Part shown: positions 1,887-27,324 of the stretch, piece after piece
Layout: each line of letters begins with the position of its first letter
Position numbering within the stretch: position 1 is the stretch's first letter
From: a virus
Direction: 5' to 3' (one strand)
Virus record (IMG/VR): IMGVR_UViG_3300028534_000016
Span: 1-28,151 of that record
Length of the DNA: 28,151 nucleotides
The notes under the pieces: model-generated
The model's input: only the letters and a program-made list of their open reading frames with translations
Databases searched by the model: none
What the model was told of the DNA's origin: nothing
Translations under genes and position numbers: made by a program

Positions 1887-3008
1887 TTACATAACTAGAG
1901 ATAATTCTTCTTCAAATATTTTTAACTCATTCACAGTAAGGTTATGTTTACTCATTTCATCGCTCATTAGTTCTCTTATATTATCTGGTGTTATTTGGAA
2001 ACTATCTATTTTAGGCATGTCTAATAACTTATCTTGGTCTAGCTTAGTATCTTTCTTTTCTTTACTTTCTATCTTAATATAATAATTAGGATACTTATGC
2101 TTAACAGCATCTTTACTCTTTTTAAGAGAACTATCTTTGTTAACTAATATCCTTACATAACTATGTTCTTTTATCTTACGTATATCCTCGTCTAATAACT
2201 TATATACTGTGTCATCATCTATTCCGGAATAATTAAGTGTTTTAAATATCATACTATTTTTATTCGGTATAAAAATATATTCCATATCGTTATGTTCTTT
2301 ATCAATAGTGATGACCATACCACCTTTGTCTTCTTCTTCGTTATGTGTTAATCTATCAAAACTACCTTGTGCCAATATTCTACCATTAACACTATGTATG
2401 TGTATATGTCCTATACTAATATAATATTTAACTATATCTAAATAATCATTTTCGTTATGGCTACTTTCTAAAACTATCATAGGTAACTGATAATGAAACT
2501 GACCATGCATAATAGCTATATCTACTTGTGTTAAATGTTCTTCTTCCAATAACTTCTTAACATCTTCATATGTTTCACTAGCTTTATGTTTATACTCGTC
2601 AGGAACATATAAAATAGTTAAACCTAAATCTTCCATCTTCTCAATAGCTAATGTATCTATGTATTTAAAATCTAAATCTAAATTAGTTTCTTTTAATACT
2701 GTATTAAGTACTGACGCTTGGCGCCAATCATGTCCTGGTGTTCCTTCTAATATTCTTAACTTAATATTATTGTGTTTACAATACATAGCTAATGTAGTTA
2801 GCCACTCTAATGCTAATAGAAATGCTTTACTTCCGTTTACTAATAACTTATCGAATATATCTCCAGCTATAAATATAATATCCAAATGTTTAAATATTTT
2901 ATGGTTGTCTTCAAAATAGGTTCTTAAGTTAGCTACTATATTCTCAGTAGGGTTTTTATCGTGTCCTAAGTGTATATCTGATAATACTAAATATCTAATA
3001 GGTTTCAT
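1887..3008 (-). CDS. sbcD: SbcD/Mre11-like metallophosphoesterase nuclease
   Basis: SDIHLG, AGDIFD, GTPGHD, MHGQF and GHIH motifs; start placed at MKPIRY (AAGGAG RBS at 3014-3019). Confidence 0.85.
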   Translation of the reverse strand: MKPIRYLVLSDIHLGHDKNPTENIVANLRTYFEDNHKIFKHLDIIFIAGDIFDKLLVNGSKAFLLALEWLTTLAMYCKHNNIKLRILEGTPGHDWRQASVLNTVLKETNLDLDFKYIDTLAIEKMEDLGLTILYVPDEYKHKASETYEDVKKLLEEEHLTQVDIAIMHGQFHYQLPMIVLESSHNENDYLDIVKYYISIGHIHIHSVNGRILAQGSFDRLTHNEEEDKGGMVITIDKEHNDMEYIFIPNKNSMIFKTLNYSGIDDDTVYKLLDEDIRKIKEHSYVRILVNKDSSLKKSKDAVKHKYPNYYIKIESKEKKDTKLDQDKLLDMPKIDSFQITPDNIRELMSDEMSKHNLTVNELKIFEEELSLVM

Positions 3009-3079
3009 TATTGCTCCTTGAATCATCATTAATGTCCAATCTATATAAAAACAAAACAGACCCGACCCCGGAGCTAACG

Positions 3080-3350
3080 ATTACTGCTTGTTATTCTATT
3101 TGGGTAGTTATTTTTCTATATTTCAATTTATTCTTCTATTAATATTATTACAGCGATTAAAAGAATTAATTTAATTAAAAGAATACAATTCTATTACAGC
3201 ATATTTTGCTATTTATATTTTTCTATTTGCTATTATATGAAACTATATTAATCTAGTACATATAATTGTTAATATATAGTTTCCTACTGATGACCGAGAC
3301 AGCATTCTCGGAGAATGTAGAAGCTGGCAACCAGACAAGCTAATTACTGC
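3080..3350 (+). repeat. four direct ATTACWGC octamers (3080, 3147, 3193, 3343)
   Basis: Seen directly in a long AT-rich non-coding region. Confidence 0.55.
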
Positions 3351-3370
3351 GTATTAAAAATAAAACCTAT

Positions 3371-3447
3371 TCTCTTCTTTCTTTTTGAAAGGAGGGGGAG
3401 AGGGGCGCTAGCCCCTCTGTGGGGGAGGAAAACTTTTTCTTTCTTCT
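3371..3447 (+). other. mirror-symmetric pyrimidine/purine tracts around a GC hairpin (origin or ncRNA candidate)
   Basis: tcttctttcttttt-g-aaaggaggggg [agaggggc gcta gcccctct gt] gggggaggaaa-ac-tttttctttcttct. Confidence 0.6.
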
Positions 3448-3472
3448 AGTTTCTTAAGTTATGTTATAATGT

Positions 3473-3505
3473 TATAGTATGGAGCTAAATTAGCTCCATA
3501 CTATA
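3473..3505. terminator. palindromic hairpin, family copy 1
   Basis: tatagtatggagcta-aat-tagctccatactata, 15-bp perfect stem. Confidence 0.65.
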
Positions 3506-3555
3506 TGTGTATATTTTTTTTATATTTTAGATGATATATTATTTAAGGAAATATT

Positions 3556-4032
3556 ATGAAAATGTCAAGAACTGATATTAAACTCATTATACGTTATTTA
3601 GTTATAATGTATTTATTATATTTAGCAACTAAAATTATACAACCTGAATGGTTAAATTCTGTAGACTATTTATCAGGAACAGCATTATCAGTATTGGTTG
3701 GTTCTGTTTATGGTGCATTAGGATTAGTATTAAAAGCACACTTTAAATACGGTCCAAATAAAGACGATAAAGATGAAGACAATATAATTATCACGAAAGA
3801 TATAAAGATTGCTTCTAGGTACCTTATTTTATTCTATATGATGTATTTAATAACATATGTTACAAGCATTGAATGGTTAGAATCTGTTAAGGACATTAAA
3901 GACACACCAATGTCTGTTATATTAGGCTCAGTTTATGGTGCCTTGATTATAGTATTGGGTGCTCACTTTGAATATAAAGTAGATGATACTAATATAAACT
4001 TACCTAATGTAAATAGCGGTAATAGATATTAA
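3556..4032 (+). CDS. membrane protein made of two tandem 2-TM repeats (holin-like candidate)
   Basis: Internal duplication DIK..RYL...Y..YL.T....EWL.SV.....T..SV..GSVYGAL..VL.AHF.Y occurs twice; AAGGA RBS. Confidence 0.7.
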   Translation: MKMSRTDIKLIIRYLVIMYLLYLATKIIQPEWLNSVDYLSGTALSVLVGSVYGALGLVLKAHFKYGPNKDDKDEDNIIITKDIKIASRYLILFYMMYLITYVTSIEWLESVKDIKDTPMSVILGSVYGALIIVLGAHFEYKVDDTNINLPNVNSGNRY

Positions 4033-4048
4033 AAAAAAAAATAATGTT

Positions 4049-4077
4049 ATAGTATAGAGCAATAAGCTCTATACTAT
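4049..4077. terminator. palindromic hairpin, family copy 2 (bidirectional terminator candidate)
   Basis: atagtatagagc-aataa-gctctatactat between convergent genes; A-run just upstream. Confidence 0.75.
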
Positions 4078-26674: not shown

Positions 26675-26947
26675 ATGAGTGAAAGGTTAACCATGAAAGA
26701 AAAATTACATAATTTTAATATAAAAATAAAAACACAACAGAAACAAAGAATAAGAAATTTAACAGAATTACAAACTAATATACTTGTAAATAGAACCGAT
26801 AATGATCCTTTACCATATGTTATACCTAGATTAAATATTGAAGAAGATTTATATAAGTTAAAAGACGTAGATAAAGCGGGAGAGTTAATAGCTAAACATA
26901 TAAAAGAAAATAAACACATAGCTTTAATTACAGACTATGACGCGGAT
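26675..26947 (+). CDS. recJ: RecJ ssDNA exonuclease (DHH family), exon 1
   Basis: Ends with HIALITDYDAD, the first part of DHH motif I. Confidence 0.9.
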
Positions 26948-27324
26948 AAATAATATATAATTGTCCTGGTTGATTAGTAATAATCAATTTAATATCTATC
27001 TAATTGCGGGAAACCCCTTAGAGCTCTATAGTACTACTTACAGCTAGAAATAGACTGTAATACTCCGGCCGTAATAGTGGTAAGGAGCATAGTAAAAACC
27101 TATAGAGATTGGGCAACCGACGCAGCGAAGTACCTAACCTGTAACTACAGTATGGTATGTGTTCAACGACTATCTCCGGCGGGAGAGTACACTCTAAGCA
27201 GAGTGGAAATGATAGACACCCTAGCTATGCATATAGTGGGTGAAGATATAGTCTGGTCTCTAGTGAGAGCTAGAGCAGTGGTAAGACCACGGATGTGTAG
27301 TAGCGATACATATCGAACATTACG
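26948..27324 (+). ncRNA. group I self-splicing intron (IA-like, no ORF), 377 nt
   Basis: 5' exon ends in U; P1 GGAU/GUCC with U.G pair; P aattgcgggaa (27002), Q ...cgcagc (~27116-27126), R gttcaacgacta (27161), S aagatatagtc (27243); P7 gacta/tagtc; P3 tctatc/gataga; terminal G at 27324; removal restores DYDADGINS. Confidence 0.95.

Follow-up and report, generated by a model that had tools for sequence, protein, structure and literature searches.

The first 28 kb (28,151 nucleotides (nt), called the window here) of the IMG/VR virus record IMGVR_UViG_3300028534_000016 carry a non-coding element at positions 3371-3447. The two arms of this element are mirror images of each other around a GC hairpin. 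The record is a contig of 138,469 nt with 30% G+C and is 53% complete (CheckV). The element is read here, tentatively and with somewhat less than even confidence, as a rearranged, solitary copy of a triplex-type DNA element with a mirror repeat, of the same type as the bacterial BoxC/PIT/TM-ECO intrastrand-triplex repeats, that would act by the self-structure of its unwound DNA, of its transcript, or of both. The element is likely a triplex-type mirror repeat in design and probably one in descent. The rules of triplex formation are the only reading tested that accounts for the exact mirror arms. A dedicated trans-acting function of the element is not indicated. Its parts are as follows.

3373-3386, plus strand: left pyrimidine tract of 14 nt, the exact mirror of 3434-3447.
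3388-3398, plus strand: left purine tract of 11 nt, G-rich, with a Shine-Dalgarno (SD)-like GGAGG inside, the exact mirror of 3421-3431.
3399-3418, no strand assigned: central GC hairpin of 8 base pairs (bp) with a GCTA loop, -16.8 kcal/mol on the plus strand and -15.5 on the minus strand.
3421-3431, plus strand: right purine tract, a reversed copy of the left purine tract.
3434-3447, plus strand: right pyrimidine tract, a reversed copy of the left pyrimidine tract.

Read backwards, the left arm gives the right arm exactly (14 + 11 nt identical); the two are not reverse complements. The linkers within the arms are unequal, with G3387 on the left and AC at 3432-3433 on the right, a single 1-nt indel. 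The central stem pairs 3399-3406 with 3411-3418 (8 bp) around the loop at 3407-3410 and is followed by GT. The purine blocks lie 22 nt apart, and 20 of those nt form the hairpin. Every tract is pure, and each arm consists of a pyrimidine block and then a purine block. This architecture had been pointed out in an earlier note made from the letters alone, and the sequence is as described there. Mirror symmetry was measured with a gapped, information-weighted score, and 15 dinucleotide shuffles of the whole contig served as the null. The centre at 3410 scored 38.0 bits, the highest value in the 138-kb contig (runner-up, 31.3) and about 9 bits over the best shuffle (shuffle maxima, 21.7-29.3 bits). 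A single pair of tracts reaches about 26 bits, which is the level of the shuffle maxima; it is the joint centre of both pairs that is exceptional. The element was also said to be strikingly G-rich, and this was borne out: it contains two of the six G or C runs of at least 5 in the contig, and it is one of only two non-coding sites with 9/14 G or C, the other being 123292-123330. It is single-copy in the 138-kb contig plus 11 kb of a second assembly. An independent ENA assembly is 99.95% identical over 6 kb, with three differing positions that all lie outside the element. The mirror element is letter-for-letter identical in both assemblies and is therefore not an assembly artefact.

The rules for an alternate-strand H-DNA triplex, as set out in PMC4666352, are satisfied at 25/25 mirrored positions because the arms are mirror-identical and their blocks are pure. 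The alternate-strand form would be required since each arm switches from pyrimidine to purine. A pyrimidine-motif third strand runs parallel and forms T*A.T and C+*G.C triplets, according to the same source (PMC4666352). Under unwinding or supercoiling of the duplex, the plus strand of one half would serve the other half as a third strand. Its purine part would bind antiparallel to the purine strand through G*G.C and A*A.T triplets, and the pyrimidine part would lie parallel to the purine strand on the opposite strand through T*A.T and C+*G.C triplets. The central GC hairpin would close the loop and draw the halves together. The likeliest effect would be a structural obstacle in a long untranslated leader, formed as a DNA triplex and/or as three RNA hairpins, that would add to premature termination before the downstream gene for a protein of 158 amino acids (aa). 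The element may also have been a recombination-prone edge of an inserted block. The earlier suggestion of triplex H-DNA thus holds, on the 25/25 fit, as a putative type of symmetry, whereas the quadruplex proposed beside it fails in its canonical three-tetrad form because only three runs of G4 or longer occur in the element.

A look-alike of the element was found in bacteria. Prokaryote genomes, one per species, were queried with both purine 11-mers and returned 12 matches. One was relevant, in a metagenome-assembled genome (MAG) of the Defluviitaleaceae (Clostridia; G004). This match also shares the T-run-G and AC-T-run linkers, which were not demanded by the search pattern, and it is one copy of a dispersed repeat of ~100 nt with about 35-40 copies in the genome. 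The repeat unit consists of a T-run, G, purine block A, a short turn, purine block B, AC, a T-run, an apex loop, an A-run and pyrimidine block C. One further feature of the phage element is defined by it.

3382-3438, plus strand: core aligned to the 5' 57 nt of the Defluviitaleaceae repeat (score 50; shuffles, mean 14.6 and maximum 22).

The core match has E = 0.0016 within the G004 genome, and the rest of 3030-4080 matches nothing there. Across 20 copies of the repeat, block A agrees with the reversed block B at 16.3/19 positions, compared with 14.2 +/- 0.3 for permuted partners (maximum 15.2 of 2000), and blocks B and C are Watson-Crick partners at 18.45 vs 15.5. Because A and B co-vary as mirrors and B and C as Watson-Crick partners, the repeat family obeys, by this covariation, the class I intrastrand-triplex layout. 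Phage positions 3388-3398 correspond to block A (the third strand), and 3421-3431 to block B (the duplex's purine strand). Shared descent of the element core and the repeat is likely on this alignment. The two are not the same in full: block C and the 3' half of the apex are present in the bacterial repeat and missing from the phage element, the phage GC hairpin occupies the place of the turn, and the phage carries nine extra mirrored pyrimidines per side beyond the common part. When the ~100-nt repeat was sought by DNA similarity in 25 relatives, it was absent save for one weak match in one genome.

This bacterial family is the sole look-alike. The earlier note had looked to jumbo phages for the same architecture, and none was found there in viral contigs or metagenomes. 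A pattern of the two purine 11-mers separated by a gap of 10-40 nt had no match in viral contigs, and neither did an 18-mer from the right arm. The metagenome matches to the pattern (at least 119) were all purine low-complexity sequence, poly-G junk, coding sequence or Saccharibacteria tandem arrays; one coding match was a helicase P-loop. The Saccharibacteria arrays, seen in a MAG and in metagenomes, repeat a ~25-nt unit with GGAGGGGGAGGAAA, and a complementary C-rich stretch stands before each.

Several points weigh against the triplex reading. In low-GC Firmicutes, a T-run with GAAAGGAGG after it is a generic string of terminator plus ribosome site, so that the resemblance to the Clostridial repeat could be convergence and the match may be inflated. 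The phage copy has neither the same-strand complementary pyrimidine block nor the apex of the Clostridial repeat, and a true intrastrand triplex is therefore impossible in it. Its own tracts pair through 8 and 7 Watson-Crick pairs plus 3 and 4 G.T pairs per arm, and the DNA hairpins of the arms reach just -3.9 and -1.2 kcal/mol. For classical H-DNA, the 22-nt spacer is long and the arms are short (11 + 14 nt). The phage has just one copy of the element, and no other viral contig with it was found. For the neighbouring gene, the sole homolog comes from a contig with only 91 nt upstream of it, a stretch that is not significantly similar. Finally, the BoxC/PIT repeats are reported to be without any demonstrated function (PMC4666352).

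The element lies inside a 526-nt gap between an SbcD-like gene (1887-3029, minus strand) and the 158-aa gene. The features of this region are listed below.

3030-4073, no strand assigned: ~1-kb block of 440 nt of non-coding sequence and the 158-aa gene, absent from relatives.
3556-4032, plus strand: 158-aa gene of no known family, with an internal repeat and hydrophobic stretches; the only plus-strand gene here.
3231-3240, plus strand: promoter-like TATTATATGA with a TATG core; a start at G3239 would fall on the first base of the inverted repeat 3239-3283.
3259-3266, minus strand: inverted second ATTATATG, pointing at the SbcD-like gene.
3286-3311, plus strand: ACUGAUGACC and a 6-bp hairpin, with a paralog at 84091-84116 that has two compensatory pair changes.
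3473-3521, plus strand: terminator module of a 16-bp palindrome (3473-3505), an 8-nt spacer and U8 (3514-3521).
4049-4077, minus strand: inverted terminator module (palindrome, minus-strand U10) directly after a ligase-N-like gene.

Beyond the 158-aa gene lie the ligase-N-like gene and then a type IA topoisomerase gene, both on the minus strand. In four relatives (SbcD 58-65% identical), other genes stand from a few to ~85 nt before SbcD, and one overlaps it. Because SbcD adjoins the preceding gene in these relatives, 3030-4073 is, by gene order, an insertion, an accessory block. TM-type repeats have been reported at rearranged loci (PMC4666352). The whole intergenic region had no blastn match in GenBank phages, and searches of viral contigs with the 158-aa protein and the topoisomerase gave nothing. 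The only homolog of the 158-aa protein is 62% identical and comes from a 1211-nt contig. A conserved right hairpin with a compensatory change was considered in the first 30 nt of that contig and rejected, as the similarity is not above shuffles (106/500) and an alternative alignment to the left arm is equally good. Small open reading frames (ORFs) in the 526-nt gap are without ribosome sites, and a tRNA/tmRNA scan found none. The gap also holds four ATTACWGC octamers in the same orientation within 270 nt (3080, 3147, 3193 and 3343; 7 in the window vs 1.96 expected) and tandem and direct AT-rich repeats (3156-3183 and 3201-3228). Elsewhere, a group I intron occupies 26945-27275 of the window (Rfam RF00028, 89 bits), and related intron cores that share 10-mers occur near 53.1, 53.6, 111.0 and 136.5 kb of the contig. 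A 214-kb contig whose deposit names Campylobacter coli encodes an SbcD relative (53% identical) and may hint at the host of the wider clade.

The element is probably transcribed within a plus-strand leader or short RNA of ~283 nt, given its position between the promoter-like motif (3231) and the plus-strand terminator (3473-3521). TATTATATGA stands 130 nt upstream of the element, and the terminator module is 26 nt downstream. The contig contains four copies of TATTATATGA (3231, 83927, and on the minus strand 89426 and 123330), all intergenic. Among the 5915 10-mers with at least four copies, 72 are intergenic throughout, and nearly all the others of these are U-runs, palindromes, group I intron cores or ribosome sites. 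The copies stand 317, 372, 389 and 325 nt before the next same-strand start codon, of a 158-aa, a 76-aa, an SbcC-like and a 286-aa gene, respectively. The late promoters of phiKZ have a TATG core, and their transcription begins at G (PMC7598289). TATTATATGA is a candidate for a TATG-type promoter class with long structured leaders. It is absent from three related phage records, in which GGGGGAGG occurs at coding or unrelated sites only. The inverted repeat 3239-3283 has 13 bp. The paralog of the 6-bp hairpin also follows a copy of TATTATATGA, and a 41-nt purine tract comes after it. The 76-codon frame over this paralog (83933-84163) lacks a ribosome site and is possibly non-coding. Of the 8 contig copies of UGAUGACC, 5 are intergenic.

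The contig contains 36 long AT-rich palindromes. After seven of them comes a complete run of 8 U's within 20 nt on one strand, at a spacing of 5-9 nt. Four of these modules directly follow a same-strand stop codon and two end longer non-coding stretches; the seventh (3473-3521) points right with no plus-strand ORF before it. The module at 4077-4049 ends the minus-strand operon on the far side of the 158-aa gene. This gene is bracketed by inverted modules of ~48 nt (3466-3521 and 4032-4077) that differ by a compensatory stem change; as the U-runs face inward, both modules would stop transcription entering the gene. T4-type phages have promoter-stem-loop cassettes by which genes are shuffled, and the layout is reminiscent of them. 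In divergent gaps, palindromes were found only here and at 123254-123284, each right after a non-coding G-rich site on the strand read towards the palindrome, and both G-rich sites share the 10-mer GTGGGGGAGG. The second site (123292-123330) starts 10 nt after a copy of TATTATATGA, and a U-run and a palindrome of the same family follow. With a matrix built from 9 copies, an early-type promoter motif was found in 13 strong copies in the contig, all on the minus strand; a plus-strand look-alike at 3523 was rejected, with 12 bits vs at least 22 for members. Inside the early-promoter copy 1846-1884, two bases are different between the two assemblies.

An unlikely but serious alternative to the triplex reading is that only the RNA matters. 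The element would then be the three-hairpin 3' domain of a plus-strand non-coding RNA (ncRNA) or leader of ~283 nt that starts near G3239 and is cut short at 3473-3521, and the hairpins would stabilise the RNA or tune termination and read-through into the 158-aa gene. The mirror would be incidental. Much of the context fits this proposal. A plus-strand terminator module lies downstream with no ORF upstream, and TATTATATGA holds the TATG core of phiKZ late promoters in copies 317-389 nt before the next gene. The plus strand of this stretch is apparently under RNA-type constraint, because the paralog of the hairpin 3294-3311 shows two compensatory pair changes. The predicted RNA 3239-3521 has z = -6.35; the z-scores are alike on both strands, however, and are driven by palindromes. 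A precedent is found in phiKZ, where terminators inside 5' untranslated regions (5'UTRs) yield abundant short RNAs, with 17 candidates (PMC10914365). Rfam searches of the region and of three other long leaders, at the gathering and E-value thresholds, gave nothing (best in the region, E = 0.6, on the palindrome); the absence of TATTATATGA from the three related records also argues against this proposal.

The fold itself is strand-specific, as had been claimed. Plus-strand RNA 3369-3449 forms three hairpins at -40.4 kcal/mol, with the minimum-free-energy structure equal to the centroid, and the minus-strand fold reaches only -23.0 kcal/mol. The flanking hairpins have -13.2 and -9.9 kcal/mol on the plus strand and -5.3 and -1.9 on the minus strand, which is weaker because 7/22 flanking pairs are G.U. 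The GAAA-capped, mostly wobble-paired left helix of the earlier note was not supported: the best left hairpin has a U5 loop at 3382-3386 with 4 C-G, 4 U-A and 3 G.U pairs, and the GAAA-capped register competes with the central stem. When C and T were shuffled within the pyrimidine tracts, the element folded at -37.0 +/- 2.7 kcal/mol, close to the native -40.4, and the native fold was matched by 10% of shuffles for the whole element, 7.6% for the left hairpin and 40% for the right. The RNA fold is mostly a by-product of a U-rich tract adjoining a G-rich one, since any U-rich tract beside a G-rich purine tract pairs in RNA. Because the shuffled tracts fold almost equally well, RNA pairing is not the cause of the mirror; the fold is set by composition, and the base order, which is the mirrored feature, needs another cause. 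The C residues of both arms face the same three G's at mirrored positions, an arrangement that RNA pairing does not demand, and the chance of the three G-C pairs alone is 1 in 35 by our own count. The idea of an ncRNA 3' domain is therefore backed by its context (terminator, promoter-like motif and paralogous hairpin) but not by the fold of the element.

Other RNA-level readings were rejected. The central stem runs into G-rich sequence with no direct U-run, as an intrinsic terminator would have, and a U-rich tail follows only the weak right hairpin. Neither GGAGG is followed by ATG, GTG, TTG or an ORF, which speaks against an SD-sequestering thermometer of the fourU type. In a pseudoknot between each pyrimidine tract and the purine tract of the opposite arm, the 1-2-nt linkers would be too short for 11-bp helices. 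For CUGAUGA, hammerhead and K-turn readings lack their partner motifs.

It is rather improbable that the element has no function and is a decaying foreign or low-complexity scrap, for example an old terminator-plus-ribosome-site carried with the inserted gene, in which the mirror arose by chance and slippage. Its single copy, the absence of a homolog from every phage collection searched and its place in an accessory insertion would fit such an origin, as would the SD-like strings with no start codon after them, and neither arm on its own leaves the range of the shuffle maxima. The joint mirror score, however, is ~9 bits over the best of 15 shuffles, and the nine mirrored bases per side exceed the part common with the Clostridial repeat. 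The element is also identical in two assemblies that differ elsewhere. To our knowledge, no mutational process makes mirror repeats, as opposed to inverted or direct repeats, which further counts against a chance origin.

The earlier note had offered a priming or packaging signal. No support was found for packaging. Replication priming is improbable, both in general and as worked out below for a nucleus-forming phage. In general terms, the G-rich plus-strand transcript would keep an RNA-DNA hybrid, the displaced mirror strand would be held as a triplex (an H-loop) or by its G-tracts, and RNase H would leave a purine-rich primer. In a primase-less nucleus-forming phage, the element would be a start site at which RNA from the TATG-type promoter at 3239 is locked by the H-loop and a polymerase-bound RNase H trims the primer. 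Chimalliviruses have no recognisable primase and a polymerase with integrated RNase H, and RNA-DNA hybrids have been suggested to start their replication (PMC13648698). On the RNA-like strand, the tracts consist of purines only and are rich in G, and the gap has the four ATTACWGC octamers, an AT-rich core, and SbcD, topoisomerase and ligase-like neighbours. The other non-coding G-rich site shares a 10-mer and has a U-run after it. Yet the 53%-complete fragment yielded no RNase H and no DnaG zinc ribbon, gene orientation and skew do not switch at the site, and the absence of the block from relatives would be odd for an origin. The canonical three-tetrad quadruplex, with its three G4+ runs only, is ruled out here as well. 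Least probable is a role for the minus strand as a C-rich RNA with two exposed, anti-SD-like CCUCC around the hairpin, acting on ribosome-binding sites as the C-rich small RNAs RsaE and RoxS do, or in the SbcD leader: its C-rich stretches are unpaired in the minus-strand fold and one equals nine bases of the usual 16S 3' tail, but transcripts arriving from the right are expected to end at the U10-bearing module 4077-4049, no early-promoter copy lies between that module and the element, and the only minus-strand promoter-like motif (3266-3259) is, in that direction, downstream of the element.

If the triplex reading is true, the element would be a compact natural motif of alternate-strand, hairpin-bridged H-DNA. 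It would belong to a virus whose DNA is copied and transcribed inside a compartment free of ribosomes, a setting in which R-loops and non-B DNA should be of importance, and it would connect bacterial intrastrand-triplex repeats with the borders of accessory gene cassettes of phages. Should the triplex reading be wrong, the element would be a curiosity within a non-coding leader. The region also offers leads on transcription in this AT-rich jumbo phage, namely a four-member promoter-like motif with leaders of 317-389 nt, and terminators in which hairpin and U-run are 5-9 nt apart.

Several known systems resemble parts of the element. ColE1 RNA II, the mitochondrial CSB II and the retroviral polypurine tract are R-loop or G-rich sites at which primers form. 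The element is like them in that a U/T-run comes after a G-rich purine run on its RNA-like strand, and unlike them in that it is not conserved in relatives. As with the short RNAs from phiKZ 5'UTRs (Putzeys et al. 2024, PMC10914365), the start codon of a small, separately inserted gene has a predicted terminator between it and a promoter-like site. The phage type appears related, and a structured short RNA of a few hundred nt is predicted, but no mirror repeat is described in the phiKZ examples. The conserved terminator of phiKZ is a hairpin with a pyrimidine arm and a purine arm followed by TTAT (PMC10914365). Positions 3411-3428 differ from its 18-nt hairpin core by 3 mismatches on either strand (0.08 expected) and have the same arm composition, but form only 5 pairs. 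Unlike the phiKZ terminator, the element ends in an A-run, C and a T-run with no TTAT, and the terminators of this phage are AT-rich palindromes with a U-run.

The closer parallels are found among triplex-forming repeats. With homopurine.homopyrimidine H-DNA mirror repeats (PMC11667243; PMC4666352), the element shares an exact purine/pyrimidine mirror and a canonical triplet at every mirrored position. It differs from them in that its arms switch from pyrimidine to purine, as in an alternate-strand triplex, and in that its 22-nt spacer pairs with itself, whereas H-DNA has a spacer of a few unpaired bases. Compared with the BoxC/PIT/TM-ECO repeats (Holder et al. 2015, PMC4666352), the phage element has no same-strand Watson-Crick pyrimidine block, a GC hairpin at the turn, and one copy instead of many dispersed ones. 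Its pyrimidine tracts mirror each other on both sides, which makes it two-fold symmetric, class I and class II at once. Like these repeats (PMC4666352), the phage element has a purine block and its mirror (11/11) with flanks of pyrimidine or T-runs, is G-rich and intergenic, and lies at a rearranged locus.

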